Of a DNA stretch of 64,000 bases, positions 10,433 to 30,937 are shown piece after piece. Every line of letters begins with the position of its first letter. Position 1 is the stretch's first letter. The translations under genes and the position numbers were made by a program. Under the pieces are notes generated by a model that did no database searches, was not told the origin of the DNA, and saw only the letters and a program-made list of their open reading frames with translations. The DNA is from an uncultured bacterium (GTDB lineage Bacteria; Omnitrophota; Omnitrophia; Omnitrophales; Aquincolibacteriaceae): the NCBI GenBank assembly GCA_964385615.1, contig CAYLPP010000004.1, forward strand, positions 39,494 to 103,493, written 5' to 3'.

Positions 10433-10453
10433 GCGGGGGCAGAATAGCATATA

Positions 10454-11974: not shown

Positions 11975-13263
11975 ATAAAAAACAGCTGGGTTTCTGGGAC
12001 TCAGTCGCGATTAACGTGGGGATTGTCATTGGCGTCGGTATTTTCCGCACGCCTGGAGAAATTGCCGGCTATGTGGATTCCACTCCGCTGATTCTGCTGA
12101 CCTGGGCGCTAGGCGGTTTGGTCGCAATGGTGGGCGCGCTTTGCTACGCGGAGCTGGCCGCGTGCTACCCTCAAACCGGCGGAACCTACGTTTACTTAAG
12201 GGAAGCTTACGGCCGGCCTTTCGGGTTTCTTTTCGGCTGGGTGGAATTCGCGGTGATGCGCCCGGGGTCGATCGCGGGGGTTGCTTATATTTTGACGAAT
12301 TACCTGGGGAATTTTGTTCCCGCCGCGGCTTCGCATGAAAAACTTTTCGCCATCCTAATGATTCTTTTCTTTACGGTTCTCAATATCCGCGGGCTTCACG
12401 TGGGGAGCGGAGTGCAGAATATTCTAACGGTTCTTAAAACTGCGTCCATTGTTCTAATGACGGGAATTATTTTTTGGAAGCTTGGGCTTCCGTCAGCCGG
12501 AGGGCCTGTTTTTTCGAGCGTGACCGGAAAAAATCTTATGGGTATCGCACCCGCGCTGATTCCGGTCATGTGGACGTACGGCGGCTGGCATCAGAGCACT
12601 TTTATCGGCGGAGAATTCAGGGACACCAAACGGGATTTGCCCCGATCTTTGGTTATGGGGGCCTTGATCGTCATGGCGCTTTACCTCATGATCAACGCGG
12701 CTTACCTGCGGGTTATGACGCCTGCTGAAACCGCGGGAACGAAAGCGATCGCTTCGGAAATTTTTTCCAGAATTTTTGGAACGCCTGGCGGAACTGCCGT
12801 GACGATTGCTGTTTTAATTTCCGCCGCGGGGGCGCTCAATTCCACGATTCTGACGGGAGGGCACATTCCCTTCGCGGTGGCGGGGGATTATCCCAAGCTT
12901 TCCTGGGTCGCGAAAATTGACGCGAAATTTCATACCCCCCTTCAATCTCTGGCCGTTAACGGGATTTGGGCTTCCGCTCTGGTTCTTTGGGGGAATTTTG
13001 ACCAGCTTCTTTTTTTCTTCGCGTTCGCGAACTGGCTCTTTTTTACGATGGCCGGGATTAGTGTTTTTGTTTTGAGAAAACGCGATCCCGAAAAAGTTAA
13101 AAAATCCATGCCGGGTTACCCCTGGGTCCCCGTGATTTTTATTCTATCTTCAGCGGTTCTTTGCCTGATCACCATCCGTACCGCGCCCTTTGAAAGTCTC
13201 TTCGGCGCCGGTTTAATGCTGTTGGGCTTACCGGTTTATGCTTTATTCAGGAATAGGGAATAG
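11971..13263 (+). CDS. APC-superfamily amino acid/polyamine permease
   Basis: About 12 TM segments with APC-like N-terminal motifs (VAINVGIVIGVGIFRTPGE, GGLVAMVGALCYAELAA). Its ATG overlaps the nagZ TGA (ATGA). Confidence 0.8.
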   Translation: MNKKQLGFWDSVAINVGIVIGVGIFRTPGEIAGYVDSTPLILLTWALGGLVAMVGALCYAELAACYPQTGGTYVYLREAYGRPFGFLFGWVEFAVMRPGSIAGVAYILTNYLGNFVPAAASHEKLFAILMILFFTVLNIRGLHVGSGVQNILTVLKTASIVLMTGIIFWKLGLPSAGGPVFSSVTGKNLMGIAPALIPVMWTYGGWHQSTFIGGEFRDTKRDLPRSLVMGALIVMALYLMINAAYLRVMTPAETAGTKAIASEIFSRIFGTPGGTAVTIAVLISAAGALNSTILTGGHIPFAVAGDYPKLSWVAKIDAKFHTPLQSLAVNGIWASALVLWGNFDQLLFFFAFANWLFFTMAGISVFVLRKRDPEKVKKSMPGYPWVPVIFILSSAVLCLITIRTAPFESLFGAGLMLLGLPVYALFRNRE

Positions 13264-13447: not shown

Positions 13448-16400
13448 ATGCCTCGATTTTTAAGAGCCGCCGCGTTTACGGTTCTTCCTCTATTTATATG
13501 GAGTCAGATTAGCTGGGCCAACCCGCTTTTGGCGCAGTCCGGGGGAGAAGTGCGCCTGGAGACTCCGCAGATATCTGATTTTTCAATTCCGGAAAATCTG
13601 GGGAAAATACAGTTTGAGCATCCAGGATCCGGTCCTGCCATCATTCATATTCAAACGGCCCACGGAAATTATGGCGCAGAACAAAAAATAAGAGACCTGC
13701 TGGAGTATTTAAAAAAACGTTACGGCTTCAAACTTCTCTTAGTCGAAGGAACCGCTTCAAAACTTGAACCGGAACGCTTGAGTTTTTTTGGAAAAGAGAA
13801 ATCGCTGAGCCTTGAGACGGCTGAAAAATTGACTCGTGAGGCCCTCATGAAAGGTTCTGAGCTTTTTTTGATGGAAGAACCCGGCATGGAAGCTTACGGC
13901 ATTGAAAACCGGGAAGCGTATGTATCCAATGGTGAAGCGTTTCGGGCGGTGCTTACGGAACAAAAGGCTTCCGGGAAATTCCTCAGCGGGATGGATGAGC
14001 AGATTAACCGGTTATTGGCGGTTTTTACAGAGTCGTCTTTCCGCGGTTTTTTGTCCGAAATGCAGCGTTTTGAATCCGGGCAGGGCTCGCTCGCGGACTG
14101 GCTGGGATATCTTAAAAGTGTTACCGCAAAAAATTCAGGTTTAAACCTTGAAGACCCGGCTAATCAATTTGACTGGCCGATGCTGACCCGCTTCTTTAAA
14201 CTACAGGAACTTGAAAAGAAATATCATTCCGGCTCTTTCCGCGAGGAGCTTCCCGGCTTCCTGGCGCGGCTCCAGGGAATAAGTCCGGAATTATCCTCTC
14301 AGGCTGAAAAGTTATTTTCCGCGGAAAATATGCGGGTCCATCTGCCGTATCCTCAGACCGGTGAATTATTTGAGGCTATCGCGCGTGTTTTGCCTGAAGA
14401 CTTCAGCATTGACGCTTACCCGAATGTGAAAATCCGTGCGGCTTTTTTGATCCTCCAAAGTGAATTAAGCGCGGAAATGCTCATGAGAGAAACCGAAAAG
14501 CTTTCGGAGCTTGCTTCGGACGGGCTTGCCCGGACGGAAGATCAGAGGAAGATCTATGGGTTTTACCGGGACTATCTTTTGCTGACGAAACTTTTCGCAC
14601 TGAATGTCACGCCTGAGGAATACGGCTTAATTTTAAAACGCCGTGAAGCGCTGAACCCGGAAGCTTTGGCCGAAGAATTCCGGAGGCTGAACTCGGGAGG
14701 GCGTGTCCGTGATTTGAAGTTCGAACATTTGGCTGAAATATGTTCGCTATTTGAAAAATCGCTCGAATTTTATAAAGGGGCTAAAGAGCGTGACGCTTTA
14801 ATGATTCAGGGGGTTGAGCGGAGGTTAAAGGAAACCGGAGCGGACAAGGCAGTGGTGATTACCGGCGGGTTTCACGCGGAACCGTTTCAGGATTATTTTT
14901 CTTCTCATGGGTTTAATTATGCGCGGATCATGCCGGAGATTACAGTTTTAGGCGGAAGGGATGCCTATGTGGAAGCCGTTCTGCAGAGCCAGCCCCGCCT
15001 TTTTTTCGCATCGACCCGTGAAGTGCCGTTTGCTTTCGCTTCACCGGAAGCTCTTTTGGAAATGGATAGAAATGCTTATCTGGGCTCGCTCGACCGGCTG
15101 GTACGGGCTGAGCTTGAAACGGCTGAAGATTCCGGGGACTTAAAAAATATTGAGAAAGCGAATTCAAACGGCCGTTTATTCGGGATTCAATATCAAGCCG
15201 GTTCAAAAAATGTGACTGTGAGCGCGGATGGAAAAAAATTCACGGTTCCGGTTTCACTTCGTCTGAATTTAAATCAGACTCGGCTCCTTCAGCGTTCCGA
15301 GTTGAGGGTGGACGTTGAGAAACTTAAAAACGCCGCGACTAAAGATGAAGCGCTGCGTGATCTTTTGAGCACTCTGGTAAGCGGAAGCGATGACAGGCAG
15401 CGTTTGTCGGCCTATCGGATCCTCACGGGAGTTTTTAGACGGGGCTCGCATAGAGATGAGATTTATCAGCATTTTACGGATAATGACCGCCGAAAAATCC
15501 GGGAGCTGATGTTCCACGCTTTTTTTGATCCCGATCACCGGATCCGTCAAGACCTGGGGTACAACCTTTACGGAAGCCTCAAAGATTTGGCTTCAAATGA
15601 TGATCTTATGGATTATCTTGCCAGGGCCGACGTTTATCAGCCGGGGCATTTAAATGAAGCCGAGGAATTTGTTTCCTGGGAAGTTTCCGGTCAGGAACCT
15701 CGTTTGAGCCCTGAGGAAACTTACAGCCTGGCCACGCAGAAATACATGGGTAAAGAAGCCGTTCTTTTCGCGATTTCCCGGCGCATCCATTTTTCTCACG
15801 GGAATCCTGACGAGCCGTACTTTCAGGGAAAAATACAGGAGGCCGACGGGGATTTCCGGGCCGCTTTGAAGTGGTTTAATCCGGAAATTCTTCAAGACTC
15901 AAAATTCCCGATCGCGCGAGCGATCCACGCGGCTCTTTTTGAATTTGCGCGTGAGGAAATGGTCGAGAATCATATTCCCGCTTCCTTTCTTATTCCGGAT
16001 CAAAAGACGCATTCGGTGAAAAACTGGAGGCTTGAAATGATCCGGTGCGTGATGGGAGATGCCTACACTCCGTGGATTTCGGCGATGGTGAGTCTCTATG
16101 CTTCGTTTATCGCAGAGCATCAAGCGGTTTTAGGGCGCGAAAGTATTGGACTCAGCTTTCAGGAAATCCGGAATCGCAAGACCGGTACGGAAAAACCGAT
16201 TTTGTATGGACCGGTTAAGGCAGTTCTGGCGGGCGATGAGAATAAATTGGCGTATATCGCCGCCCGGAGTCTAGAGCATAAGAGTTCCAGCGGGGCCGAC
16301 ATCCGGGAAGGGTTGACTGTTCTGGAAGGATACCGCGAACTGCTCGCGGAAAATGGTTTTGACTTCGGCGACGCGATTCGAGTTTCAATCCGAAAAATGG

Positions 16401-19400
16401 GCACGCTTTCTAATTTAATAAACCGGAATTTCCTGAGCGCTTCGCGAGATGAAATAATGGGACCTCTTTTGGAGATTCAAGAAGATTTGAGAAGACTTTT
16501 AGAGCTCCTGACGGCGGAGGAACCGAAAATTCGGGGACGCAGTGAGGAGCTGATGCGGGGCAGTGACAAAAGACAGGGTGCCCGGCTTCGGAAAAATTTC
16601 GAAGTTCTCACGGAGCAAACCCGGCTTCTTAAGGTGTATCTTGATGACCGGATTGCGTTCGCGAACAAAAGCTCTGAACCCGCGCGTACGGAAGTGGTGC
16701 CGGTTCTGGGCTTAATTCAGTCACGGCATGGTCAGAAACTGGTTATTGAGACTTCAGATCTTTCCGGGGTTTCCGCCGCTATCTCCCGCGTCCGGCTTTT
16801 CTCGATTCTCAATAATCTTGTTTCGAACGCAATTGAGGCCCAGGCGGAGTATTCTCAGGAACCGGTAACTGTTCGAGTTTCCTTGGAAAAAGAGGGGATT
16901 CTTTTTGAAGTTCAAGATCACGGACCTGGTTTTCCTTCGGATTATTTTCAGCCCGGTGAAAATGGAATCCGCTTATTTGATCTGGATGAGAGGAAAGGGC
17001 TGGGATTGGCTGAAGTCTGGGCGACTACGGCCCTGGCTTCAGGGTTTCTGGATGTCATTTCCAAAAGCGGGAAAGGCTCCACAATCGGCGTGACAATTCC
17101 TCGCTCAGAGGTACGCACTCAAACATCCGAAGCCCCAGTCATTCAGGATTTAATCATTCCCGGTGTTTCGGCTAAAACACTTGGGGTTTCACCTTTGAGC
17201 CGGATTAAGGTGTGGAGGCGTAAACCGGTGCGGGGGAATCCTTCTCTGGTCCGGAGTAATGACAATCTTTTAGTGGTTGAAGCAAAAATGGCGAATGAAC
17301 TGAAAGCTTTAGACCAGATATGGGCGCGTATCGTGCTGCGTCTTGATAATCCGTCCGCGGAAGAAGTGGAAGGGATGCGGGTTATGGCGGAGGTCATTGA
17401 ACGCGTAAAAGTCCGTATCCGGCTTGAACAGAGGAAAAGCCAGGAAATTTTACGTGAGATTATGGGGTTTGAAGGAAGCGGGGGTATTTCAAACCCTAAA
17501 GCCCGCGAAATCGTTGAGAAAGAACTTCTTCCTGACTTGGAAGATCGTGATGAATTTCTTTTTTTGAGCGCTGCCGAAGAAGTCAAAGGCGTTTCGCTTG
17601 AAAAAGCCCGCACCGCGATTACCCGGCGGTATCAGACCTTGGCCATGATTAAGCTCTACCAAATTATTTTAAATCTGCCTTATGGGTTCCACACAGAAAG
17701 CGATGACGTGATTCAAATGCAAAGAAACCTGGCCGCATCCCGTAAGGATGAACTGGAAGCTGAAGTCCCGAGGATTTTAAGCGCGATTGAAAAAGGATCC
17801 AGCCCTCGTGCCGCCGTTCAGGAATCCATCGAACGTATCAAGATCAGAATCCGGGATCTTGACCGGGAGATTAAAGAGACTCCCAGCAGTGAGGACCGGA
17901 CGTCACTGAAAACACTGCGGACAATCGCGGTGGAACAGATCGGGTACCTTGAAAAAGTGGGAACCTCTTACGATGTTTACGAATATCTTTACGAGCCTCG
18001 TGATCCGGAGGATGTTAGAAAAGAAAAAATTAGCAACGAAACAAAACGTCATGTTCAGCTTGCCCGGACGGCGGGCGATGAATTCCCGGAGCTTAAACGG
18101 CGGGGATGGTCTCTGAAGACGATTTGGTTTTATGTGTTTTCATCAACAGCCTGGGTTTTTGGCCTGCATTTTTGGGCTGTTCGGTTTTTCCGTAAGAATC
18201 CTGATTTTTTTCTGAATTGGTTTAACGCTTACATCCGCAACGAGATTTCCAAAGGCCGGCCGGTTCAATACGCCGCTGCCAAGTTTTTCTATGAAAACCG
18301 TGAGCTGGCCGCGAAAAGGGATTCGCTGTTCTGGCCTTTTTTGATGCGTTATTACGATCTGGCTGAATATGGTCACGCCCGCAGAGAATCTGGTGACCCG
18401 GTCATCGTTTTTGCCGAAGAGATTCACGACGAATCGGATTATAACCGCCTGATGGCGAGTTCCCGGGGTCACGGGAAAATCGCGGCGATTGTCGCGCCTA
18501 AAATGGAAGGGGAAATGAGAATCCCTCACTGGTTTATTTACGCTAAGAAGGAAAATATTCTCGTTCTGACTTCTCTGGATTTAAGAAAAGCGGGGATCCG
18601 GCTGGAGGATCTTGAAAAGGCTGATGGGGAAGAGTACGAGGGGATGGTGGACGCGAAACGGGGGGTTCTGGTGATTAATCCCTCCGTGGAAACTCAGCTG
18701 GAGTGGCAGAGTAAGGGAGAAACTTACGAGCTCCAGGATAAATATTATTGGAGCCGCGCGCGTAAGCAGACCATTTTTAATCTGACTCAGATTGAGTACC
18801 TCGCGGATGAAACCAGCCTTGAAGCCATTGAATGGATGGATGGTCAACCCTCCCTGCTTTACCGCTCCGGCGCGAGCGGGGTTGGTTTATTCCGTCTCGA
18901 AGAACTTTTGACCGCTCAGATGGACCGCGCGGGTATTGAGCGCGATCCGGCGCGTATTCAGGCCGCGGGGTCGGAAATTCTTGGTTATCCGGAATTTGAA
19001 AATGGCCAGGTTTTTACTATCAGACTTAATGATGTGAGCGTGGACAAAAGACCTCAATTCCTTGTGGATGGCGCTAAAGGTTTGCGCGGATGGGATATGG
19101 ATGAAATTATCCGGACGATGTCCGGAGCCCGTTTTTACTTGAACCGGGAAAAGTATCCGGAATTTTATGAGTTCGGGAAAATGCAGTTAAAAGCCATTTT
19201 CGCGGCTCATTTACGCAAAGGTATCCGGCGTTCAGGGATTAAGATTTTGATTTCTGATGTCCGGAATGCTTCAGAAATCGAGGCGCTTGAAGCTTTGCTT
19301 TTGGACGCGAAAAAAGAATTTATCGAAGAGGTTATCATCGGTACTTCTGCGGACCTTTCCGCGAGACTTCACTACGAGGATATGACCCAGCTTCTCTCGA

Positions 19401-22400
19401 CACTCAATCCGGATGAAATCAGCGATGCGATTGAAAGAATCCCGATTGGTTACATGTATGAAGATACCACGGCGATTGAAAATGAACGGGAAGCCATGAC
19501 CCGAAAAGTAAAGGAATTGTCAAAAACCCATTGGCGCGAAAGGTTTTTTGGAATTGGTTCCAATGATTTGAGCAAGTCGATTAATAAAGACCGCATGGGC
19601 GGAACGATGGCGCTGGATGAGTTGAGTCCTCTCCTCGTTCGGGATATCTGGCTCGCCGCCAAATCGGCTCAAAGAGAAAATATTCCGGTTAACCTGGAAG
19701 GGGAGTTGGGCGGGTCCAAACCGATGGCTTTTATTCTTCTGGCTTTGCAGGAACTCTCTGGAGGGGTGAGGATCACTCCAGTCGCCGCGACCGCGCAAAT
19801 TCCTGAATTGAAGGAGCTGGTTCGTGAGCATGTAGAGATAAGTGATTTTACGGAACCCTTGCGGGGGCAAAAATATTCCTTGGCAGAGCTTTTAGAGAAG
19901 ATCAGGGCTCCTTCTTTTGACTTGAGTCAGTTCCCGCTGGAGGACTGGAAATCAATTTTAAATCAGCTGGTTTCTACCGTAGAGGCCAGAATTTTCGGAA
20001 GCGATGATTTTAATCATTTTGCCCAGCAGATTTCCGACGGAGTTGCTCCGGAAGACGCGGAAATTCAAGCTCCGAAAGAAGCTGGATATTCCCGTGTGGA
20101 AAGTTTGGATGACGGTAGAATCCGGGAGGATAGATTATACGCGGTCGGCGCCTATGCTTTTCATACAACGCCCAACCAAAAAATTATGGTATGGCTCGCG
20201 GCGCATAGAAATGTGCGCGCGGTTTACGGTAAAGGGGACGCCGACCCAATAACCGAGCTTTATGAGTTTAATTTTATCAATATTCTCACGGTCAGAATTC
20301 TCCGCAAGCAGAAAATGTTTTTTAGGGTTGAAGGCCCTGAAGCCGAGGTGAGGGAATTTTATGAATTAATCGATACGATGGTGGAATATGACGGCATGAC
20401 CAGCACATTTTCGCCCGCGTCCGGACGCTCTGAATTAAGAGTGAAGGCCGCTCCTCAGCTTCCCTGGGATGAAATTGAAAAAGCCCAGCAGGATTTTCGC
20501 CTAAGGCTCGCGGATCCGTCTTTAAAAGACGCGGTATTGCGGGAAATTTGGAATAACGTTCTTAACGGTCCGGATGAGCTCACCAGGGCCGCGAGCTATT
20601 ACATTCTCGCGGACTTCTTTACCCAGCCTGATTTATTTGCGGGAATTATCGGGAACAAGGAAAGGCTTTTTACGGGGCGGGTGCTCTTAAGTTCTTATTT
20701 CGACCCTTCAAAAAATATTCGAATGCCTTTAGCCAGCAACAACGCCGCGGAAGAGGTTTATGAGGCGGTCCCGGATAAAGCTTTGCTTGAACTGCTGAAT
20801 CAGACGGACGCTTATCCTTTTTTGAGAGTTAACGGCAAAAATGAATTGGAAACGATTAGCACGGGGGCTGACCCCCGCCTGGGTCCCGGTGCCGTGTTCA
20901 GTCCGGAGCTTCGGGCTTATTTCGCGAAAGAAGCGATTTTGTTCACTCTGTACCGCCGTTTAGCTAACAGTTCCAGCGGAACCCCGAAATTCATTCAATC
21001 TGAAATCGCGGCTGCACAGGCGGACCTTGATAAAGCTCAAACGGCTCATGATCCTTCTATTCTGGAAAATTCAAAATCTCCGATTTTAAGGGCCGTAGGC
21101 GCCGTGCTTTTTGAGTACCTGCGGGACGAGTACGTTGAGAATGGGGTTAAAAATGGACAAAGACTGATCGGCGAAAGTAATTGGGGGATCGCGGGCCGTT
21201 GGCGGTTAAATATGATTCAGGAAATTCTTGGGCCCGCTAACAAGGCCGCCGTGAGAGAAATAGCATGGGCCTATCTGGAATTTATTCGCCAGCACGAAGC
21301 TCATCTGGGGCCCGAGACCAGAGGTTTTGGCAGGGGCCGTTTAAGCCGCTCTGAATTGAGAAATGAAGAGCAGGGTAAATCGTTTGTTGAATTTCAGCGA
21401 TTCAGCCGGCTCCCGCGGATTGAGTCCGCGAAACTGCCGTTAGGATATTATATTCAATCCTCCGGACTCAATATTGCCGTGGTGGATGATCACCATAAAG
21501 TGGTGCCGATTTGGCGGGAAGCCCACGCACGGGGAATTATTCCGAAAAATTCTTCGCTGGTGCATATTGACGCGCACACGGATGATCTCTTTGTGCCGGA
21601 CAGTCTTAACGGTCTTGTTCCGCTCCCCTCGGGGATTTTAGACGGGGCTGTTTTGGCGGACTATTTGGAGCAAGTTAAACGGGGGATCGCGAAATATTAC
21701 CGGATTGGAACTTTTATCGCGCCGGAAGTTTTGGCCGGTCTAATTGATCCTGAAAAATGGTTCTTTATTAACTCGTTATCCAATCTTAGAAGCGGTCCGG
21801 GAAGATTTCAATTTCAATGGCGCGGAATTGGAGGTATCGAGATGCTTACGGCGGCTTATCCTTTCGCGGGTACTTTGGATCGAATTTTTAAGAATAATCA
21901 GCCGGATATCGTGAATTTCGACATTGATGTAATGGGAACGGAGGTTCACGTTTTCCGGAGCCTCTTCCGCGTTAAACTCTTCCGGTTTTTGGGAGATCAA
22001 AAAGCAGATTCAGCCCAGGAAATCCTCGATTTGCTTTCAAGAGATCCGGAACTGAAAGCGAAAGGTTTTAATTTAGCCGGCGGAAGATATTCAGAAATCG
22101 TGGAAGCCTATTTCCGCTCTGACAAGAAAACGCCGGTTTTGATTGAGCTGGAAAAGAGTTTGGCAGTGGAAACCGTTTTAGCTCAATGGTTTCCGGTTTT
22201 GCTTCCGCTTCTCTCTAGAGCTAAGCTGATTACGATTGCGACCAGCCCGGGCTATATCGACCAGGATGACGCTTTAAGAATTGTTAACCGTCTTCTTCCC
22301 GAATTAGAACAGTATAAGATTAGCGGAGTTTTGACCGTGTTTCCAGAAAGGGAGAGAGAGGAAGGCGCGGGAGAACTTCCTTTTGAGCAAAGAGCCCGCG

Positions 22401-23467
22401 CCGCTTTTGAGTCGATTCCCGCGGAAATTCGCTCAAAAATTCCGGATATTACTTTCGCGCAGGCTGAAGAATACGCGCGGAACTCAATTTCCGCGGATGA
22501 ACTGAAAGCAAGAGCGGAGGAAGATTTTTCTGAGGCTTGGCATCTGCCGTACGCGATTGATTTTGCCGGCCGGATTTCGCCCCGGGCTCTGGTTTATGCA
22601 CGGCTTGGAGAATTGTTTTTTAATGGAGGTAAACCGGATTCGGACGCGGCGCTGGCGGTTTTGCTGGGTCTTTACAAACGTAACGATCTTCCGCCGGAGG
22701 AAAAGGAAAATTTGAACCGGTTTGCCGCTTCTTTGGACCGCGAGCGGGATTTACCAGGGATCGTCGCGAAAAGTGTCCGCGATTTTAATCGGGTTATGAA
22801 ACGCTCGGAAATCCGGGTTTCAGGCGCGCAAACTCTTTCCCCGCTGTTTTTTTCCCGTCTGCTGGATTTGAGGTTTGATTTTATTCCGTTTTCCTGGTTT
22901 GAGATTTACGGCAGACAGGAACTTGAAAATACGTTTAACCGCTTGAAGAAAAACAGCCGGGCTCCAGGGGGAGCTTGGGCGCCGTTTACGGCCGATCAGC
23001 GCAATCAGCTGGGCGGTGTTCTGGGGATCCGCGGAAAATCAGAACCGCCGAACGTTCTGATTGTTGACCGCGTGGCGGGTGTGGACCGCGGATTGCTTTC
23101 TGTGCTGGGGGAAGCGGGACAAGGGGTTCGGGTTATTTTAGCGGGAGCTTCTGACGCGGATCGGAAGATTGTGGAAGCTTTGAACCGAGAGTTAAAAGCG
23201 CGGAAAAGGCCGGAAGTGCTTCTAGCCCAAAACGCGGAAGAAGCCCGCCGGATAGCTGATAAAGCGGTGAATGGAAAAGCGGTTATGCGGGCTTATCTGG
23301 ACGCCTCTGAAATTGGAAAATGGGGTGAAGCTTTGAGGAAGCAAAAAGCGGAAGTCGTCCCCATGACTCCGCGGATGTACCAAAATCTGACGGAAGGTTT
23401 TGCCGCCGCGGCTGCCCGGTTGACCGCCTTTTTTGAGATCAGGAAGCGCATCAGCTCTGCAGCATAG
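13448..23467 (+). CDS. Giant multidomain protein (3339 aa), called giant 1 below. Its parts are a signal peptide, a TraB/GumN/Tiki-like N-domain, a GHKL ATPase domain, one hydrophobic helix, an Enzyme-I-like PEP-utilizing module, an arginase-fold-like signature, and a C-terminal domain shared with the next gene.
   Basis: A single uninterrupted 10-kb ORF preceded by a GGAG ribosome-binding site. Details are in the findings. Confidence 0.85.
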   Translation: MPRFLRAAAFTVLPLFIWSQISWANPLLAQSGGEVRLETPQISDFSIPENLGKIQFEHPGSGPAIIHIQTAHGNYGAEQKIRDLLEYLKKRYGFKLLLVEGTASKLEPERLSFFGKEKSLSLETAEKLTREALMKGSELFLMEEPGMEAYGIENREAYVSNGEAFRAVLTEQKASGKFLSGMDEQINRLLAVFTESSFRGFLSEMQRFESGQGSLADWLGYLKSVTAKNSGLNLEDPANQFDWPMLTRFFKLQELEKKYHSGSFREELPGFLARLQGISPELSSQAEKLFSAENMRVHLPYPQTGELFEAIARVLPEDFSIDAYPNVKIRAAFLILQSELSAEMLMRETEKLSELASDGLARTEDQRKIYGFYRDYLLLTKLFALNVTPEEYGLILKRREALNPEALAEEFRRLNSGGRVRDLKFEHLAEICSLFEKSLEFYKGAKERDALMIQGVERRLKETGADKAVVITGGFHAEPFQDYFSSHGFNYARIMPEITVLGGRDAYVEAVLQSQPRLFFASTREVPFAFASPEALLEMDRNAYLGSLDRLVRAELETAEDSGDLKNIEKANSNGRLFGIQYQAGSKNVTVSADGKKFTVPVSLRLNLNQTRLLQRSELRVDVEKLKNAATKDEALRDLLSTLVSGSDDRQRLSAYRILTGVFRRGSHRDEIYQHFTDNDRRKIRELMFHAFFDPDHRIRQDLGYNLYGSLKDLASNDDLMDYLARADVYQPGHLNEAEEFVSWEVSGQEPRLSPEETYSLATQKYMGKEAVLFAISRRIHFSHGNPDEPYFQGKIQEADGDFRAALKWFNPEILQDSKFPIARAIHAALFEFAREEMVENHIPASFLIPDQKTHSVKNWRLEMIRCVMGDAYTPWISAMVSLYASFIAEHQAVLGRESIGLSFQEIRNRKTGTEKPILYGPVKAVLAGDENKLAYIAARSLEHKSSSGADIREGLTVLEGYRELLAENGFDFGDAIRVSIRKMGTLSNLINRNFLSASRDEIMGPLLEIQEDLRRLLELLTAEEPKIRGRSEELMRGSDKRQGARLRKNFEVLTEQTRLLKVYLDDRIAFANKSSEPARTEVVPVLGLIQSRHGQKLVIETSDLSGVSAAISRVRLFSILNNLVSNAIEAQAEYSQEPVTVRVSLEKEGILFEVQDHGPGFPSDYFQPGENGIRLFDLDERKGLGLAEVWATTALASGFLDVISKSGKGSTIGVTIPRSEVRTQTSEAPVIQDLIIPGVSAKTLGVSPLSRIKVWRRKPVRGNPSLVRSNDNLLVVEAKMANELKALDQIWARIVLRLDNPSAEEVEGMRVMAEVIERVKVRIRLEQRKSQEILREIMGFEGSGGISNPKAREIVEKELLPDLEDRDEFLFLSAAEEVKGVSLEKARTAITRRYQTLAMIKLYQIILNLPYGFHTESDDVIQMQRNLAASRKDELEAEVPRILSAIEKGSSPRAAVQESIERIKIRIRDLDREIKETPSSEDRTSLKTLRTIAVEQIGYLEKVGTSYDVYEYLYEPRDPEDVRKEKISNETKRHVQLARTAGDEFPELKRRGWSLKTIWFYVFSSTAWVFGLHFWAVRFFRKNPDFFLNWFNAYIRNEISKGRPVQYAAAKFFYENRELAAKRDSLFWPFLMRYYDLAEYGHARRESGDPVIVFAEEIHDESDYNRLMASSRGHGKIAAIVAPKMEGEMRIPHWFIYAKKENILVLTSLDLRKAGIRLEDLEKADGEEYEGMVDAKRGVLVINPSVETQLEWQSKGETYELQDKYYWSRARKQTIFNLTQIEYLADETSLEAIEWMDGQPSLLYRSGASGVGLFRLEELLTAQMDRAGIERDPARIQAAGSEILGYPEFENGQVFTIRLNDVSVDKRPQFLVDGAKGLRGWDMDEIIRTMSGARFYLNREKYPEFYEFGKMQLKAIFAAHLRKGIRRSGIKILISDVRNASEIEALEALLLDAKKEFIEEVIIGTSADLSARLHYEDMTQLLSTLNPDEISDAIERIPIGYMYEDTTAIENEREAMTRKVKELSKTHWRERFFGIGSNDLSKSINKDRMGGTMALDELSPLLVRDIWLAAKSAQRENIPVNLEGELGGSKPMAFILLALQELSGGVRITPVAATAQIPELKELVREHVEISDFTEPLRGQKYSLAELLEKIRAPSFDLSQFPLEDWKSILNQLVSTVEARIFGSDDFNHFAQQISDGVAPEDAEIQAPKEAGYSRVESLDDGRIREDRLYAVGAYAFHTTPNQKIMVWLAAHRNVRAVYGKGDADPITELYEFNFINILTVRILRKQKMFFRVEGPEAEVREFYELIDTMVEYDGMTSTFSPASGRSELRVKAAPQLPWDEIEKAQQDFRLRLADPSLKDAVLREIWNNVLNGPDELTRAASYYILADFFTQPDLFAGIIGNKERLFTGRVLLSSYFDPSKNIRMPLASNNAAEEVYEAVPDKALLELLNQTDAYPFLRVNGKNELETISTGADPRLGPGAVFSPELRAYFAKEAILFTLYRRLANSSSGTPKFIQSEIAAAQADLDKAQTAHDPSILENSKSPILRAVGAVLFEYLRDEYVENGVKNGQRLIGESNWGIAGRWRLNMIQEILGPANKAAVREIAWAYLEFIRQHEAHLGPETRGFGRGRLSRSELRNEEQGKSFVEFQRFSRLPRIESAKLPLGYYIQSSGLNIAVVDDHHKVVPIWREAHARGIIPKNSSLVHIDAHTDDLFVPDSLNGLVPLPSGILDGAVLADYLEQVKRGIAKYYRIGTFIAPEVLAGLIDPEKWFFINSLSNLRSGPGRFQFQWRGIGGIEMLTAAYPFAGTLDRIFKNNQPDIVNFDIDVMGTEVHVFRSLFRVKLFRFLGDQKADSAQEILDLLSRDPELKAKGFNLAGGRYSEIVEAYFRSDKKTPVLIELEKSLAVETVLAQWFPVLLPLLSRAKLITIATSPGYIDQDDALRIVNRLLPELEQYKISGVLTVFPEREREEGAGELPFEQRARAAFESIPAEIRSKIPDITFAQAEEYARNSISADELKARAEEDFSEAWHLPYAIDFAGRISPRALVYARLGELFFNGGKPDSDAALAVLLGLYKRNDLPPEEKENLNRFAASLDRERDLPGIVAKSVRDFNRVMKRSEIRVSGAQTLSPLFFSRLLDLRFDFIPFSWFEIYGRQELENTFNRLKKNSRAPGGAWAPFTADQRNQLGGVLGIRGKSEPPNVLIVDRVAGVDRGLLSVLGEAGQGVRVILAGASDADRKIVEALNRELKARKRPEVLLAQNAEEARRIADKAVNGKAVMRAYLDASEIGKWGEALRKQKAEVVPMTPRMYQNLTEGFAAAAARLTAFFEIRKRISSAA

Positions 23468-23692: not shown

Positions 23693-26600
23693 ATGAAAAA
23701 ACGGGACGGCAGACTCGTAAGGAAAACAAGCGCGGCCATTACGGCCGCGTGTTTTATCGCCCAACAGATTTTTGCACCCGCTGTTTCTTCTGCCTCCGAA
23801 GTTCAGGAAAGCAGTCTCCGAGTTCCCTCAATTGAAATTCCCGCTGAAATAGGTTCCCTTGAAACCTCAGGGATTTTAGAAGATCAAAAGCCCATGATTA
23901 TTCAGGTTCAGGACGCTCACGGAAATTATGACGCTCAGAAAAATATTCAAAAAATTCTCCAGCATCTTACCGCCTATGAAGGCGTCGACCTTGTTTTGCT
24001 CGAAGGCGGAAAAGGCCCGCTTCATCCCGAAATCCTGAATTTTTTACCAAGACGTCCTGATTTGAATCTGGAAATCGCCGACCGTCTGGCTCAGCAATCT
24101 GAACTGAGCGGAGCGGAGATTTTTCTTCTAGACCGGTATTTGGCGGGGAAGACTCTTGCCGCATTTGGGATTGAAAACGCTCCGGCTTACCGGGAGAACC
24201 GTGAAGCTTTTCAAAAAGTTCTGCGCGCCCGGGAGCAAAGCGGAAATTTCTTAAAAGATATGGAAATGCAGATTGACCGCCTGACGGCGCCTCATGTGAA
24301 TCCTCAGCTCAAAAATTTTCTGCGCAGTTATGAAGCTTATGAATCACGGCAGATGGATTTGACGGTATGGCTCCGCCAGCTTGAGGAGCTTTCACGCAAG
24401 CACTTGGGCTTGGACCTGGATTTAGCCGGAAGTCAGAAAGACTGGCCGATGCTCACCCGGTATTCCCGCCTGCGTAAACTCGAACCCAAACTTGATAAAA
24501 CGCGTGTTGAAAACGACAAAACGGCGATGCTTCAAAAACTTAGGTCGCTCAATGTTTCTAAAGCGGTGATTGAGGCTTTTGACAATGCCGTGAATATGGC
24601 CCCGGATAACGGTGTTCAGGCTTCTCAAATTGTGAAAGCTGTTGAGAGTGTGATGGAAGCGGTTCCTTCCGATTTTTCTTTTGAACCCTATGGGTTCCTG
24701 AAAGCTTGGATTCAGTTTGAAGTTTTTCAGCGTGAGCTTAATGGAGAAGCTTTATTCGCGGAGGTCAGCAAACTGGAAGATCTTCTCTCAAATCAGCTGG
24801 CCAGAACCGAAACCGAGAAAAAACTTCTGGCCCTCTTTAAAGATTACCGTGCTCTAAACAAACTTTTCGCTCTCGAACTTACCCGGGAAGATTATCAGAA
24901 TATCCAGCGTTCTGAGGACACGATGACGCCTTCGGCCATCGCCGGACGGTTTTCAGCGGTCAATAAAAACAAGCAGGTCCGCGACACGCAGTTTATTCAT
25001 TTAAAAGAACTCGACGCTCTTTATTCGCTCGCGCTTAATTTTTACCGCGGAGCGCTTGACCGCGATCATTTGATGGCGGACAACATTTTGGAAACTATGC
25101 AGGCGCAGGGGAAGCGCCGGGCGGTTGTTGTGACCGGCGGGTTTCATTCAGAAGGAATGCAGGAATACTTTCAATCCAAGGGTTTTTCTTACGCGCGGAT
25201 CAGCCCGCGAATTCAGGAGCTGGGTGACAACAAAGCTTATATCCGGGCAATGCTGGATGAAGATGTTGAAATTAAAAAATCGCAGGTCGCGGATATCCTG
25301 GTGGAACAATTCGGGGAAGTTCAGCTGGAGCTGGGGAGCGCCAGCCACTTAACCCGCAAGGACGCAGTCATTTACCGGGTCATGCGGGATGTCGTTGAAC
25401 ACGCGGGCGCGCGCTCAGAAATGCGCGGACGGCGTGATTGGATTTACGGTATCGGGCTTGTGACCGCGATCGGTTTAGCGGCTTATGCCGCGTTTAGACC
25501 CTTGCCTGTCAATCCGCCGGCTCAGCAGGATGTGCCTGCAAAAGTCGCGGAGCTAGAACCTAAACCGGTTCAGCAGGAGAAGAAGGTTGAAGAAAAAAAG
25601 CCCGCTCCGATTCCTGAAGTGGTGCCGCTGCCTCAGCCTGAAAAGAAAGCTCCAATTGTTAAAATAGATGAGCCTGTGATTGATAAGGCCGAAACGCTCC
25701 GTGTTTGGGGTAAGCGGGAAGTGCCTAAAATTTCTCCTGAAAAACTCGAGGCTCTTGTCACTTCAGATTTAAACGCGGAACAGATCCGGTATTTGCTGAA
25801 ATACGATAAGCGGTCGAAACAGCTTGAGTCCGCGGGAGCGGGAAAAAACACGGTTTGGAGTATTGAAGCCGGTGTCCGTCATATTACAGAAGCTAAGCTG
25901 AATAAGGCGGAGAAGGCGGAGTTTGAAGCGACGAAAGGCGCGATTGAAGAGTTTTTGAAAGAACTGAAAGAAGACGGCGCTTTTAAAGAAGGGCAGACCG
26001 CTCTGGATCTTTATTACTTTTTCTTCCGCCCGCTTTTTGTGGTGCAGGACCGTCATGGAGCTGCCGCCGCGAAGTGGGTGGTAGAAATGCAGATTGCTTA
26101 CTTTACGGTTAAGAATAATTTTGAGATCAACCTGAAAGGGTTAACTGAAAAATCTTTGAGCGCGACTTATATCCGCACCATTGAGGACTATCTGAATGCT
26201 GATGAGTGGAAAGCTAACGGCGGGGAACGGTTAAAAATCGCGTTCGCGCTTTCTATTTTATACGCGCAGATGGATAATTATAAACAGGTGATTTGGCGTA
26301 ATCACGACTGGTCAAAATTCAAAAGGCTTGAGCTTCCGGCTGAACTCGAACTCTACCGCTTTTACGGCGAAAAAGGGCTCGGCAAAGATGCGTTGGAACG
26401 CATGGAGCTCGAACTTAAAGCTGAAATCCGCGGCCCCAGACCCCTGGGAAAAAATAATGCCTGGAACAACCGCCCGAATCTCCCCCAACGTTATGTCGGC
26501 CTTTACGAAGAAGTTTATTCCAGGACCTGGTATTACTCGACCATGCACCGTGAGCGTTTTTACCGGCCCGGAGATTTCCGCCTCGGAGCGACTCCGAATC

Positions 26601-29600
26601 CCTGGTTCCCGACGCATACGCTGATGTACTTCCATATTTCCAGAATGGATTGGGTCCAGAAACGCGCTTCGGATGTAACGGGTGTGAGCCGTGAACCCTA
26701 TTTCATCGCGCCGGTGGCGATCCAGCTGCCCAGCGACAACATCCGCAAAAACAAATTTCCGATTATTATTCCAGCACGCCCGGACGCTGTCTGGGGCGCG
26801 ATGGGGCTCGGCGATAGAAGCAGTCAGCGGGCTGAAGATATTTTCAGTTTTCATCTTTCCAATCCTTCCGCTTGGAAGCCGGGTGAAAAAGACGAGCTTC
26901 AATATCTCGATCAGGTTTTTGACGCGGCAAAAATGAAAGATTTCAGTAAGCAGTTCCGCGCATTATGGGACAGCGGAAAAGTCCGGAAATTGTATGTCCA
27001 GGATTACGGAGAATTTCTGGTGGATGATTTCCTCAAGAAGTTCATTGACCAGAATTATTTTGACGTTTTCAACGGTCAGCTGAAAGGAAACGAAAAGTAT
27101 TTTGATGATCTCGCGAAGGCTTTGAGGACGCAATATCCGAAACTTCCTTACGATTATCAGGTTTATCTTCAAATTCCTCTCCTTCGCTATGAGGCCGGGA
27201 AAAATCTCAAGCTGGATGATGATTATATGGCGTATCTCCGCGCGGATCTTTACCAGTCCGCGGCTCAGCTTGCCCGGGATATCTATGTCAACAACACGCA
27301 GGCGCTGATCGGCTCAGCTTACCGGCAGGGAATTTATGACACTCCGGGCGTCTTAGCGTATGTTGAACGGCACATTATTTTCCGGCCCATGGTTGAAAAG
27401 CTTCTAGGCCGTGAGCTTGTTCTCTCAGACCCTCACTCGAACGATTCGGGGCGTCTGTCCGCGTTCGTTAATGAAATTTACAAAAGAGATATTGATCCGG
27501 ACATCTGGTATCTGATTACCCGCTATACGCTTGAAGAATCCACGCAAAAAAGTGCGCTGGAATTTTACAACGCCGTGATGGGTACTGAATTAACTTCTTT
27601 GGGGCTTAACGATAAAGACGAAAAACTCGCGGCGGTCCGCTTCGGGGTTCTGCTTTCGTACGCGGCCGAGGACATTCTTCACCCGGGCCGGATGGAGAAA
27701 ATAAAAACGTTCTTAAAAACACCGGCGATGCGCCGTAAAGCTGTCGAGTTTGCCATCCGCACGCGCGGGGCATTTAGAAGTGAGCCTGATCTTACGGGAG
27801 ATGACTTAAAACGCGCCGCTGACGCGCTTGAAAAAGATCTTTTGGAGCAGAAAAACTCAGAAGCCCTTGTGCGCTACACCGGCTACTTGATCGGGCAGGC
27901 CCGGACCGCTGTTTTGAAAGACGTTCTGGATAGCGATGAAAATTTTAAGGAGTGGGTGGAATTGACGGACGCTTTGATTAAGGTTCTTGATCCGCGAGCG
28001 CCTAAAAAACGTTCCGAAGCGCGGGCGGTTTCCCGGGCGCCGGAATCTTTCGAGGCTGATTTTATCGAAGCTTTTTTAAATTCAAAGTTAATGGATTTAA
28101 CGGATCGTGAGAGGGTTGTTTTTACGAGACGGTTCGCCGAAAAGAAAAAGGTGAATGAAATCGCGGCGGAATTGAAAATTGCCGGGCCTGCTGTTTCCAA
28201 GGTTATCGCGAGTCTCCAGCTGAAAACGGATTATTTCTCGGTGAATATTTACGGCAAGCCTTTGCTCGATCCCCGCAAGCTCAATGAGCTCCCCGTGGAA
28301 AGGGTCGGATACCTTGATCAAAAAACCCTGACAGCCTGGAAAGGCAGGGGGATTAATAATTTGAAGGACTTGGTGACACGAATGCCTGAACTTCTGGATG
28401 ATCCCCAGAAAACAGGACCGGCGCTTAAAATAGTTTCCCAATACCTGATCGCTTTGGGAGTGAATCTTAATCTGGGATTGATTATGGATCTTACCCCTGA
28501 AGCTTCGTCCGCGCTGGAAGCTATGACTCTTCAGGAATATTTGGTTCAGGAAAACGCATACCAACTGCTTTTGAGAGTTCAAGCGGTTCAAGACCCTCTG
28601 TTTTTACCGCAAAAGAAACGTGAGGAAAGACCGGGTAAATTAAGACAGCTTGGAGTGAATACGGTCGGCGACCTTCTTAAGGTCGGGCTTGATGCGTTCA
28701 GACAGGCGGGATTTACCTCTTCCGACATTAAGTTAATCGCGGCGGTTTTAAAAGTTCAGCCGGCAGGAACAAGCGCCCGCTCAGAACTCCGCTCGGAAGA
28801 AACGAAACCGGAAGCCCAAGGCAAAGCTGTACCGGTACGGTCCGAAGTTCTTCAAAGAGTCCGGAGTCTCAAGACTGATGAGGTGGAAAAGTTAACGACG
28901 GAAGATCTCGCTGGAATCGTTCGTGAACTTGTGGAGAGCGGAATTTTAAAGGATTACGAAGGGCTTCAAGTGCTGTTAACGTTGTTTTCTGCGGGCCCGG
29001 CGACTGGGAAAGGCGCTTTGATGAGCGCGACTTTTCTGGCTGAAGAAGAAGGAGAAATCGCCCCCTATCAAGATCTGGTGGATAAATTCGTTCTTTTTCA
29101 CACCCGCGCTCCGCGAGTGGATAAAAAAGGAAGATCGGAAAAGAACGGAAGAGCTTACTATTTCGTGAAAACGGAAGATTTAAAACAGTTGGCGGCGGAA
29201 CTTGGCGAAGATGTTCTGGTCGTTCGGGAAATCAACCGGGAAGTTCAGGCGCTCGCGCGTAAAAATTTCACACTGCCTCATGTCGAAGTCGGGGAGGTCA
29301 CCGGTTCTGGACAGCTTCAGCCGGGCGATCTTGTCGTGAGCTTCGATGCTTCCCAGGGGCTTTTAGTCATTCAGCGCGGGGAATTCACGATTCCTCTGAC
29401 GGGGGTGACCATTCCTGAAGGCTCTGCGGGGTATTTTTTAAATGGGGATAAAATTGAAAAAGTTGAAGGGCCGGCGGTCTATGTAAGCCGGCAGATTAAA
29501 GGGATTGAAGAAACGTTTAAGAGCGGAAAGCTGACCATTCTTGAAGGCGGTTATGAATGGTTCAAATGGGTTAAAGAGCATTATCCGGAAGTTCTGACCA

Positions 29601-30937
29601 TGTTTTTATCGCCTTTCCGCGAACCCGAATTCGCCGTGCGTGCCCAGAATTTGGCATGGATCCGGGAAAACTTTTCAACCCCTGAAGATATTTACGCGGC
29701 TTTTGAAGCGATGACGGATTTGATTAAAGCCAATAAAGGTGAAATTTCCATTCCTTCGTCAACGGGCTATCAGGCGGCTATAAAAGCCAAGGTTGATTCC
29801 AAACCTGCGATTCCGCCTGTGCTGGCCGAAAACACCGCGGTCATTCTTAATGACGCTGATTTTATCGCTGAACTCAATCAGCTTCGGAGCCGTTTTGGAA
29901 AGCCTTCGCTGAAGCCGGAAGATTACGATTTGGCCCGGGCCCTGGCCTTTGAAGTTCAGAGGAGGCTTTTCGGCCGTGATGGGGTGAAGGCGTTTCGTGT
30001 CGGCGGGGAAAGAAGCAATCCTTACGACCGGATTTTAGAAGGAACCTTGCAGATTCTGGACCGGAATTCCGATTACGGCGCTGAAAACGTTCTTCCGAAT
30101 CCTTTTGGGTACACGGAAGACGAGAAAAGTAAAAACATTAATGAGTTGAGCGATCAGTTCGCCCGGCGTGTTTTCCTGCACGTTGTGGAAGGTCTTCGCC
30201 GGTCAGAGATCAGAAATAATCCGGCGGATATTACCGCGGTATCCCTGCTTGAAGGCAAACCGGGGACGCCTTCAGAATTATTAGTTCAGGCTCCGGTTGG
30301 GATTTCACCGCGGAAGACTTTGCGCGCGGTCCAAATCGTTACTGAGGTTTTTGATGGAATTGCGCCTACGGCTGGAATTCTCGGCATTTCGGCGGAAGTT
30401 CTGATTGACCGGATATCTGCCGGTGAAAGCGGAAAGGTTTCACCGTGGGTGCCGTTTACCGATGAACAAAGAAAACAGCTGAGCGGAGTGCTGGGAATTC
30501 GCGGGCATGGAACTCAAGCAAATGTTCTGATTACTGAACCCGTCGCTGGTATTGATAATGGCCTGCTCGCTTTACTCGGTGAAGCTGGAGAAGGCGTTCT
30601 GGTTATTTTGGTGGGCGCGGATGATCAGCAGAAGCGTATCGTCGCTGAAATGAATAAAGAATTAAAAGCCGTGAAGCGTCAAGAAATCCGGCTGGCTAAA
30701 GATACGGTCGAAGCCCGGAAGATCGCGGATCAATACACTAAGGGAAAAACCGTGATGCGGGCGTATGTCGACGTTTCAATGGTAGGCCGGTACGGTACGG
30801 CGCTGCGTAAACAGCTTGCGGATGTTATCCCGATGACTCCCAGAATGTACGAGAATATGAAGCAGGGGTTTGCCGCGGCGGCAGCCCGCCTGACGGCTTT
30901 CTTCGAAATCAGCAAACGGATCAAATCCGCGGCATAA
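23693..30937 (+). CDS. Giant multidomain protein (2414 aa), called giant 2 below, a paralog of giant 1. Its parts are a signal peptide, a TraB/GumN/Tiki-like N-domain, a TM helix with a Pro/Lys-rich linker, a sigma70-r4-like HTH, two RNAP alpha-CTD-like HhH domains, and the shared C-terminal domain.
   Basis: A single 7.2-kb ORF preceded by an AGAGG ribosome-binding site. Its N- and C-terminal regions align clearly to those of the upstream giant. Confidence 0.85.
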   Translation: MKKRDGRLVRKTSAAITAACFIAQQIFAPAVSSASEVQESSLRVPSIEIPAEIGSLETSGILEDQKPMIIQVQDAHGNYDAQKNIQKILQHLTAYEGVDLVLLEGGKGPLHPEILNFLPRRPDLNLEIADRLAQQSELSGAEIFLLDRYLAGKTLAAFGIENAPAYRENREAFQKVLRAREQSGNFLKDMEMQIDRLTAPHVNPQLKNFLRSYEAYESRQMDLTVWLRQLEELSRKHLGLDLDLAGSQKDWPMLTRYSRLRKLEPKLDKTRVENDKTAMLQKLRSLNVSKAVIEAFDNAVNMAPDNGVQASQIVKAVESVMEAVPSDFSFEPYGFLKAWIQFEVFQRELNGEALFAEVSKLEDLLSNQLARTETEKKLLALFKDYRALNKLFALELTREDYQNIQRSEDTMTPSAIAGRFSAVNKNKQVRDTQFIHLKELDALYSLALNFYRGALDRDHLMADNILETMQAQGKRRAVVVTGGFHSEGMQEYFQSKGFSYARISPRIQELGDNKAYIRAMLDEDVEIKKSQVADILVEQFGEVQLELGSASHLTRKDAVIYRVMRDVVEHAGARSEMRGRRDWIYGIGLVTAIGLAAYAAFRPLPVNPPAQQDVPAKVAELEPKPVQQEKKVEEKKPAPIPEVVPLPQPEKKAPIVKIDEPVIDKAETLRVWGKREVPKISPEKLEALVTSDLNAEQIRYLLKYDKRSKQLESAGAGKNTVWSIEAGVRHITEAKLNKAEKAEFEATKGAIEEFLKELKEDGAFKEGQTALDLYYFFFRPLFVVQDRHGAAAAKWVVEMQIAYFTVKNNFEINLKGLTEKSLSATYIRTIEDYLNADEWKANGGERLKIAFALSILYAQMDNYKQVIWRNHDWSKFKRLELPAELELYRFYGEKGLGKDALERMELELKAEIRGPRPLGKNNAWNNRPNLPQRYVGLYEEVYSRTWYYSTMHRERFYRPGDFRLGATPNPWFPTHTLMYFHISRMDWVQKRASDVTGVSREPYFIAPVAIQLPSDNIRKNKFPIIIPARPDAVWGAMGLGDRSSQRAEDIFSFHLSNPSAWKPGEKDELQYLDQVFDAAKMKDFSKQFRALWDSGKVRKLYVQDYGEFLVDDFLKKFIDQNYFDVFNGQLKGNEKYFDDLAKALRTQYPKLPYDYQVYLQIPLLRYEAGKNLKLDDDYMAYLRADLYQSAAQLARDIYVNNTQALIGSAYRQGIYDTPGVLAYVERHIIFRPMVEKLLGRELVLSDPHSNDSGRLSAFVNEIYKRDIDPDIWYLITRYTLEESTQKSALEFYNAVMGTELTSLGLNDKDEKLAAVRFGVLLSYAAEDILHPGRMEKIKTFLKTPAMRRKAVEFAIRTRGAFRSEPDLTGDDLKRAADALEKDLLEQKNSEALVRYTGYLIGQARTAVLKDVLDSDENFKEWVELTDALIKVLDPRAPKKRSEARAVSRAPESFEADFIEAFLNSKLMDLTDRERVVFTRRFAEKKKVNEIAAELKIAGPAVSKVIASLQLKTDYFSVNIYGKPLLDPRKLNELPVERVGYLDQKTLTAWKGRGINNLKDLVTRMPELLDDPQKTGPALKIVSQYLIALGVNLNLGLIMDLTPEASSALEAMTLQEYLVQENAYQLLLRVQAVQDPLFLPQKKREERPGKLRQLGVNTVGDLLKVGLDAFRQAGFTSSDIKLIAAVLKVQPAGTSARSELRSEETKPEAQGKAVPVRSEVLQRVRSLKTDEVEKLTTEDLAGIVRELVESGILKDYEGLQVLLTLFSAGPATGKGALMSATFLAEEEGEIAPYQDLVDKFVLFHTRAPRVDKKGRSEKNGRAYYFVKTEDLKQLAAELGEDVLVVREINREVQALARKNFTLPHVEVGEVTGSGQLQPGDLVVSFDASQGLLVIQRGEFTIPLTGVTIPEGSAGYFLNGDKIEKVEGPAVYVSRQIKGIEETFKSGKLTILEGGYEWFKWVKEHYPEVLTMFLSPFREPEFAVRAQNLAWIRENFSTPEDIYAAFEAMTDLIKANKGEISIPSSTGYQAAIKAKVDSKPAIPPVLAENTAVILNDADFIAELNQLRSRFGKPSLKPEDYDLARALAFEVQRRLFGRDGVKAFRVGGERSNPYDRILEGTLQILDRNSDYGAENVLPNPFGYTEDEKSKNINELSDQFARRVFLHVVEGLRRSEIRNNPADITAVSLLEGKPGTPSELLVQAPVGISPRKTLRAVQIVTEVFDGIAPTAGILGISAEVLIDRISAGESGKVSPWVPFTDEQRKQLSGVLGIRGHGTQANVLITEPVAGIDNGLLALLGEAGEGVLVILVGADDQQKRIVAEMNKELKAVKRQEIRLAKDTVEARKIADQYTKGKTVMRAYVDVSMVGRYGTALRKQLADVIPMTPRMYENMKQGFAAAAARLTAFFEISKRIKSAA

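Follow-up and report, generated by a model that had tools for sequence, protein, structure and literature searches.

What does it mean that a single protein of 3339 amino acids (aa), encoded by an uncultured bacterium of the Omnitrophota, carries two related segments far apart in its chain? The question is raised by a stretch of 64,000 nucleotides (GenBank assembly GCA_964385615.1, contig CAYLPP010000004.1, positions 39,494 to 103,493 of the forward strand), here called the window, in which a long open reading frame (ORF) encodes the protein that we name giant 1. The answer that we favour, and consider probable, is that the two segments are ancient paralogues of an all-alpha, ARM/HEAT-like domain of about 290 residues, an exchangeable cassette of the giant proteins of Omnitrophota that would act as an adaptor or input.

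The repeated domain of giant 1

An internal duplication of about 140 aa had been proposed in an initial annotation of this DNA, with one copy at window positions 15740-16150 and the other at 20915-21330, and the peptides quoted for these segments do lie there, at aa 765-901 and aa 2490-2628 of giant 1. The two regions are homologous. In a single BLASTP alignment with composition-based statistics, aa 620-1222 searched against aa 2331-2640 gave 93 identities in 297 positions (31%), 49% positives and an E-value of 1e-37. The significance of the self-alignment, on which the proposed duplication hung, was examined with 200 composition-preserving shuffles, and the observed 126 bits compare with 15.8±2.3 bits for the shuffled sequences (maximum 21.9, z=47). 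Both segments are repeated as proposed; the length was not right, for they make up only the C-terminal half of the repeated unit. The ~140 aa upstream of them are also homologous, this extension alone reaching 47 bits where shuffled sequences reached 20.4 at most, and because the homology continues that far we set the unit, hereafter the module, at ~290 aa. At the nucleotide level blastn detected no similarity between the two copies beyond chance.

Further copies came to light when a profile of the two was searched in a large protein set. HMMER, reading 1.84 billion representative proteins exhaustively, returned four matches; giant 1 (P0001 in this library) was its own top match, the module was present besides in P0002 (5015 aa, E=1e-40) and P0003 (7672 aa, E=9e-11), and a weak match to a repetitive 591-aa protein was regarded as spurious. 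Four copies of the module are known, two in giant 1 and one each in P0002 and P0003. No others were found in a word-indexed search of 5.8 billion proteins with the two-copy and four-copy alignments as queries, nor in GTDB genome contigs or JGI metagenome contigs, and a hidden Markov model scan of 404 ORFs from 82 loci gave none beyond P0002 and P0003.

Every pair in the four-copy alignment shares 26-31% identity, the two copies of giant 1 being 31% identical to each other and 26-30% identical to those in other genomes. There are 28 invariant columns, and the motifs FDPxxxIR, PRL, YxGKEAxLF, DPxILxNSKSPxxRA and WRL run in register. Since the copies of giant 1 are equidistant from those of P0002 and P0003 and have no DNA similarity, they appear to be ancient paralogues and not the product of a recent expansion. 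A recent segmental event within the gene, or an artefact of assembly, might have been suspected from the presence of two copies in one gene and from the frequency of repeated domains in long Omnitrophota proteins (bioRxiv 10.64898/2026.06.07.730766), but we regard it as very improbable and in effect ruled out by the equidistant identities and the lack of DNA similarity: the copies have only 31% protein identity, are no nearer each other than to copies from other samples, and lie in different contexts, one fused and one free-standing. That the similarity reflects chance or composition (low complexity or coiled coil) is next to impossible; the two regions do share a helical character and a high content of E, R and L, yet the z-score, the E-value and the specific motifs aligned across four copies speak against it.

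Predicted fold of the module

A confident model of the module computed with AlphaFold2 from the four-copy alignment (predicted local distance difference test, pLDDT, 84; predicted template modelling score, pTM, 0.86) is all-alpha except for a small beta-hairpin at residues 112-122, and shows the alpha-solenoid of stacked helix-turn-helix repeats that defines the HEAT/ARM fold. At the level of sequence, none of the four copies matched a Pfam HEAT/ARM profile, or any other Pfam family, with a threshold as lax as E≤10, and a PDB sequence search yielded only designed armadillo repeat proteins (E=1e-4 and 9e-3, ~35 residues). Foldseek with the model gave weak ARM/HEAT matches only, the best of which (E=0.057) is not significant, with about half of the domain aligned. 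Going by the predicted structure, the module is thus an ARM/HEAT-like alpha-solenoid by fold, without family membership by sequence. It differs from established HEAT/ARM scaffolds (the PP2A A subunit PR65, TOG domains, importin-beta, designed armadillo repeat proteins) not only in the missing Pfam match but also in having a beta-hairpin and conserved motifs of its own, and in being a discrete ~290-aa domain where those are open-ended repeat arrays. The HEAT/ARM alpha-solenoid is a classic protein-docking scaffold. The initial annotation had suggested a recurring structural or regulatory domain, perhaps a docking module; the module is a genuine recurring domain without a known family, and for a predicted fold of this kind the structural or docking reading is reasonable.

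Module borders and the cassettes of giant 1

Giant 1 is ordered as head, module copy 1 plus a kinase-like part, an EI-like part, module copy 2, a UPF0489 part and tail, with a recurrent pentapeptide, R-S-E-[AVLMI]-R, at what we call junctions. Its features are as follows.

13448..23467, + strand: giant 1 ORF (3339 aa), carrying both module copies, from the ORF list and its translation
13568..15007, + strand: head domain, Tiki/ChaN/EreA/TraB-like, aa 41-520, preceded by a signal-peptide-like N-terminus
15293..15307, + strand: junction RSELR, aa 616-620, directly before copy 1
15308..16174, + strand: module copy 1, predicted ARM/HEAT-like alpha-solenoid, aa 621-909, start ~621/625
16175..17101, + strand: remainder of the copy 1 cassette, with helical linker, weak HisKA-like stretch and GHKL ATPase
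17102..17116, + strand: junction RSEVR, aa 1219-1223
17117..20425, + strand: EI-like (PEP-utilising) cassette, aa 1224-2326; PEP-utilizers_C E=5e-12, TIGR01417
20426..20440, + strand: junction RSELR, aa 2327-2331, directly before copy 2
20441..21361, + strand: module copy 2, free-standing cassette, aa 2332-2638, start 2332/2353
21347..21361, + strand: junction RSELR, the last five residues of copy 2
21362..22801, + strand: UPF0489/peptide-arginase-like cassette, aa 2639-3118; PF12640 E=1e-9, NF052474 weak
22802..22816, + strand: junction RSEIR, aa 3119-3123
22817..23464, + strand: tail domain, aa 3124-3339, ending ...SSAA

Each of the four module copies begins 1-15 residues past a junction, which is RSELR at 616-620 and again at 2327-2331 in giant 1, RSEMR at 4457 in P0002 and RSELR at 7119 in P0003. 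In three of the four a junction stands at the C-terminal end as well (RSELR 2634 in giant 1, RSELR 4754 in P0002, KSEVR 7385 in P0003), and these three are free-standing cassettes of ~270-310 aa each. Copy 1 ends in the conserved terminal helix LSFQEIRN without a junction after it and runs into a helical region and then the GHKL domain, in a cassette that spans aa 621-1223. Two junctions further downstream lies copy 2, which stands free as a cassette of its own. The repeats had been said to flank the GHKL and EI-like modules, which is positionally right; they do not bracket one unit, as the copies sit in different cassettes.

Pfam and NCBIfam recognise three domains in giant 1: the GHKL ATPase (aa 1115-1219), the PEP-utilising, EI-like domain (aa 1806-2104) and UPF0489 (aa 2676-2773). 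The first of these is a sound HATPase_c match (E=1e-12, 49 bits against a cut-off of 26.4), whose profile ends at position 109 of 111, exactly at the junction RSEVR. The HisKA match in the same cassette (window 16298-16429, aa 951-994) is weak (E=0.06, 13.8 bits against a cut-off of 26.9). Copy 1 occupies the N-terminal input position of this kinase-like cassette, the usual place of a sensor or input domain. In a manual alignment the H-box position of the HisKA-like stretch holds a residue other than His; the cassette may represent a pseudo-histidine kinase, or else a kinase that acts on some other substrate. Over 962 aa, the EI-like cassette (from aa 1219) shares 42% identity with a cassette of P0002; its identity to L015 is 41%, and both shared blocks begin at a junction.

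The EI-like cassette closes with a domain of ~100 aa (window ~20135-20425, aa ~2230-2326) for which Pfam gave no match; giant 1 has a single copy of it, P0002 a tandem array of three (aa 1640-1998; E=1e-5 to 1e-10 between proteins). The idea that the module goes together with an HPr-like domain before it was considered and dropped as unsupported: the preceding cassette of P0003 matches PTS-HPr only at E=0.019, and the ~100-aa domain preceding the module in giant 1 has no Pfam match and no detectable kinship to that cassette.

A family of giants with a common head and tail

Tracing the module borders exposed the design of a whole family of Omnitrophota giants, in which a signal-peptide-like start and a Tiki/ChaN/EreA-like head are followed by R-S-E-[AVLMI]-R junctions and, at the C-terminus, x-[S/A]-A. 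Searched against one genome per GTDB species, the head gave at least 461 confirmed matches; those with names are essentially all metagenome-assembled genomes of Candidatus Omnitrophota, often with several matches per genome and often in tandem. The window is accordingly assigned to an Omnitrophota genome. Publicly, all relatives of the head domain are named "hypothetical protein". Modelled from a 4-sequence alignment, the head resembles hydrolases of the Tiki/EreA/ChaN/RRSP type and has an invariant His/Glu/Arg/His set (His...Glu...Arg...Gly-x-x-His being present); it is accordingly predicted to have the hydrolase fold of the Tiki/ChaN/EreA superfamily. It differs from the Tiki/TraB/EreA/ChaN superfamily in a ~300-residue helical insertion between its two halves and in scoring below the Pfam gathering cut-off (PF04187, 18.1-21 bits in giant 2 only, cut-off 27.7).

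In the head of P0003 (L002, aa ~30-480) there are repeated in-frame inserts, "VGAPLAGA..." occurring four times and "EEKGTGSGFLPVPFS" twice, which resemble a short sequence element inserted several times.

Directly downstream of giant 1 lies giant 2, its tandem paralogue.

23693..30937, + strand: giant 2 (2414 aa), with the same head and tail and four RSExR junctions, without module
23819-25282: giant 2 head, ~480 aa, after a signal-peptide-like segment
25412-25426, 28010-28024, 28778-28792 and 30200-30214: giant 2 junctions RSEMR, RSEARA, RSELR and RSEIR

Giant 2 also carries a KAEIR. The two giants have only their N-terminal ~500 aa (36% identity) and C-terminal 180 aa (59%) in common, so that the tails (22928-23464 and 30395-30934) are more conserved than the heads. 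Nearly all complete members of the family end in x-[S/A]-A (SAA, RSA, TSA, KAA; loci L003-L082), and this tail may be a C-terminal recognition signal.

Right after the first junction of giant 2 (RSEMRGRRDW-IYGIGLVTAIGLAAYAAF) the residues encoded at 25439-25495 (aa 583-601) are hydrophobic and transmembrane-like; the head and the other cassettes could therefore face opposite sides of a membrane. The cassette at 28025-28792 (aa 1445-1700) has a weak match to a sigma-70 region-4 or LuxR-type helix-turn-helix (E=1e-3), which is unexpected beside a signal-peptide-like start.

The junction motif

The motif [RK][SA]E[LIVMA]R occurs 5 times in giant 1, 5 times in giant 2, 10 times in P0002 and 14 times in P0003, as against 0.1-0.3 in shuffled sequences; the remaining 40 ORFs of the window, ~13,900 aa in all, do not contain it. 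Across 92 head-bearing ORFs of the family (196,000 aa) RSE.R is found 297 times, or 1.5 per 1000 aa; the permuted controls RES.R, SRE.R, RSD.R, KSE.R and RSE.K occur 1-8 times each in the same ORFs (0.02 per 1000 aa), and ORFs neighbouring family members have RSE.R at 0.10 per 1000 aa, mostly in 5'-truncated giants just upstream. The logo reads R99 – S87/A12 – E100 – A27/V25/L20/M18/I7 – R100, with nearly free flanks. In these 92 ORFs the first motif stands at median position 633, just past the head, and the spacing between motifs is domain-sized (median 239 aa). Where different giants share a block of homology, the start of the block lies at a median distance of 16 aa from a motif; 57% of block starts fall within 30 aa of one, compared with 14% of random positions. 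The residue that follows the motif is A, G, S or T in 49% of cases (background 27%), Pro in 1% (background 4.7%) and L, F, W, Y, R or K in 13% (background 32%).

Because the variable position of the motif is often L, V, M or I, internal ribosome-binding sites or start codons were considered as an explanation and rejected: the underlying DNA (CGY-TCN-GAR-NNN-MGN) is not Shine-Dalgarno-like, and the variable position is written TTG, GTA, TTA, ATC, ATG, GCG or CTC. The synonymous variation of the codons argues for selection on the peptide and not on an internal translation start. To our knowledge, R-S-E-x-R fits no known protease specificity, and a literature search for pentapeptide strings returned only noise. 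At three loci other recurrent pentamers are found in place of RSExR (L057, L035 and L049; RPEAR three to four times in L057, GASLG four times in L035), and these may be lineage-specific junction variants.

Possible roles of the module and the junctions

The likeliest role of the module, judged by its modelled fold, is that of a protein-binding adaptor or a regulatory input. It would recruit a partner, either another cassette or a target protein, to the catalytic cassettes, in a manner analogous to the PP2A A subunit scaffolding its enzyme, within chains in which independent, unrelated enzyme or adaptor cassettes are strung together by R-S-E-[AVLMI]-R. More speculatively, the junctions could be endopeptidase sites cut after the last Arg (P1 Arg, small P1', no Pro), perhaps by the Tiki-like head. 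Such cutting would free copy 2 as an adaptor of ~35 kDa and copy 1 as the N-terminal part of a kinase-like protein of ~600 aa. This speculative reading of the junctions fits all of the sequence statistics; the motif may equally be punctuation that is not cleaved.

In MARTX toxins and viral polyproteins, concatenated modules are freed at short junction sites by a protease in the chain. The giants are like these in being secreted-looking and very long, in lining up unrelated enzyme cassettes one after another, and in having a protease-fold domain in cis and, as in a self-processing polyprotein, a short conserved motif at the module borders, here R-S-E-[AVLMI]-R. RRSP, a MARTX effector with the same Tiki-like fold as the head, is an endopeptidase. 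Unlike MARTX toxins, the giants have no cysteine protease domain, no RTX repeats and no MARTX homology, and their cleavage is conjectural.

Several observations weigh against the adaptor and processing proposals. In copy 2 the junction motif occupies the place taken by the terminal helix in the other copies, a position that does not obviously look like an exposed linker. Of the ~45 long family members, about 8 have no more than one RSExR. Esterases and a haem binder belong to the Tiki superfamily alongside the endopeptidases, and membership does not by itself make the head a protease. As to the module itself, the putative adaptor function is read from a modelled fold class, the analysis of conservation is thin with four copies, and the 28 invariant columns hold many charged and aromatic residues (D, R, E, Y, W).

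It is quite possible, if not quite probable, that R-S-E-x-R is never cleaved and serves as structural or recognition punctuation (a capping motif, or a hand-hold for a chaperone or for export), in a protein that functions as one polypeptide; the module copies would then be scaffolding parts, acting in cis, inside a single large machine. Folded elements can lie directly against the motif, as the HATPase_c profile ending at it illustrates, and in copy 2 it stands in for a helix; according to bioRxiv 10.64898/2026.06.07.730766, moreover, HEAT repeats serve as an internal scaffold within Omnitrophota giants. On the other hand, a context-free pentapeptide with invariant R, E and R, a small next residue and depletion of Pro looks like a protease site, every family member has a head whose hydrolase fold is akin to that of the Tiki and RRSP endopeptidases, and the cassettes look like complete proteins that have been shuffled between giants at the motif.

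A bolder extension of the processing idea, which we put forward only tentatively, is that the Tiki-headed giants are true bacterial polyproteins. A cut after each R-S-E-x-R, made by the head or by a partner protease, would then release dozens of independent enzymes and adaptors, and the module would be the adaptor that assembles or targets its sister cassettes (kinase-like, EI-like and arginase-like). If this were so, the pentapeptide would be the missing parsing rule for very large ORFs.

Enzymes can be made of helical repeats, the HEAT-like-repeat DNA glycosylases AlkC and AlkD being a precedent. The module could by the same token be a sensor, a ligand-binding or a catalytic domain instead of a passive scaffold, with copy 1 controlling the attached GHKL ATPase. 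We think this unlikely. The sensor position of copy 1 would suit it, as would the charged and aromatic residues among the invariant columns; three of the four copies, however, are free-standing with no kinase attached, the best structural matches are protein-binding scaffolds, and no known catalytic motif was recognised in the module, nor any Pfam or PDB sequence match to an enzyme.

Relation to published giants

In two preprints, giant proteins of Omnitrophota are described as mosaic chains with HATPase_c, PPDK/PEP-type, HEAT and methyltransferase domains, among others; one deals with "Archaeovorins" (West-Roberts et al., bioRxiv 10.1101/2023.11.21.568195) and the other with "multi-enzyme metabolic clusters" (bioRxiv 10.64898/2026.06.07.730766). 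Giants 1 and 2 belong to the same phylum and are the same kind of mosaic; at 3.3 and 2.4 kaa (thousand aa) they fall below the range of ≥10 kaa analysed in those studies. In the same sources repeated domains are the norm, occurring in 65% of long Omnitrophota proteins, and are described as ancient, not recent, at the DNA level. With ancient repeated domains and HEAT-like scaffolds already reported, the duplication alone is an ordinary feature of long proteins in this phylum.

What is new is a domain without a described family, of which four copies were found among 1.84 billion representative proteins, and the family-wide combination of Tiki-like head, R-S-E-x-R junctions and x-[S/A]-A tail. 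By term search, the text of 10.1101/2023.11.21.568195 has no mention of "ChaN" and no description of cleavage sites, and that of 10.64898/2026.06.07.730766 has no mention of "Tiki", PF04187, cleavage sites, "motif" or "linker"; subscription literature lay outside this scope. Head and junctions thus appear to be undescribed in the two. The tail does not occur in the two sections that were covered completely, no term search having been aimed at it. Information on the cleavage points of Omnitrophota giants is stated to be lacking in 10.1101/2023.11.21.568195, and R-S-E-x-R at module borders could supply a rule for dividing these giants into parts. We find this cassette grammar more interesting than the duplication itself. 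Should the junctions prove to be processing sites, giant ORFs could be divided computationally into their working parts, and whether they give one chain or many proteins would become directly testable.

Neighbouring genes

On the contig of P0002, the gene just upstream of it (L001 1797-9788) encodes a 2663-aa protein with a two-partner-secretion (TPS) domain. In the window, the region directly upstream of the giants (6769-13263) holds a cluster resembling one for peptidoglycan recycling, with genes for a sodium:solute symporter, the anhydro-MurNAc kinase AnmK, a SIS-domain MurQ-like protein, a GH3 NagZ-like hydrolase and an amino-acid permease.

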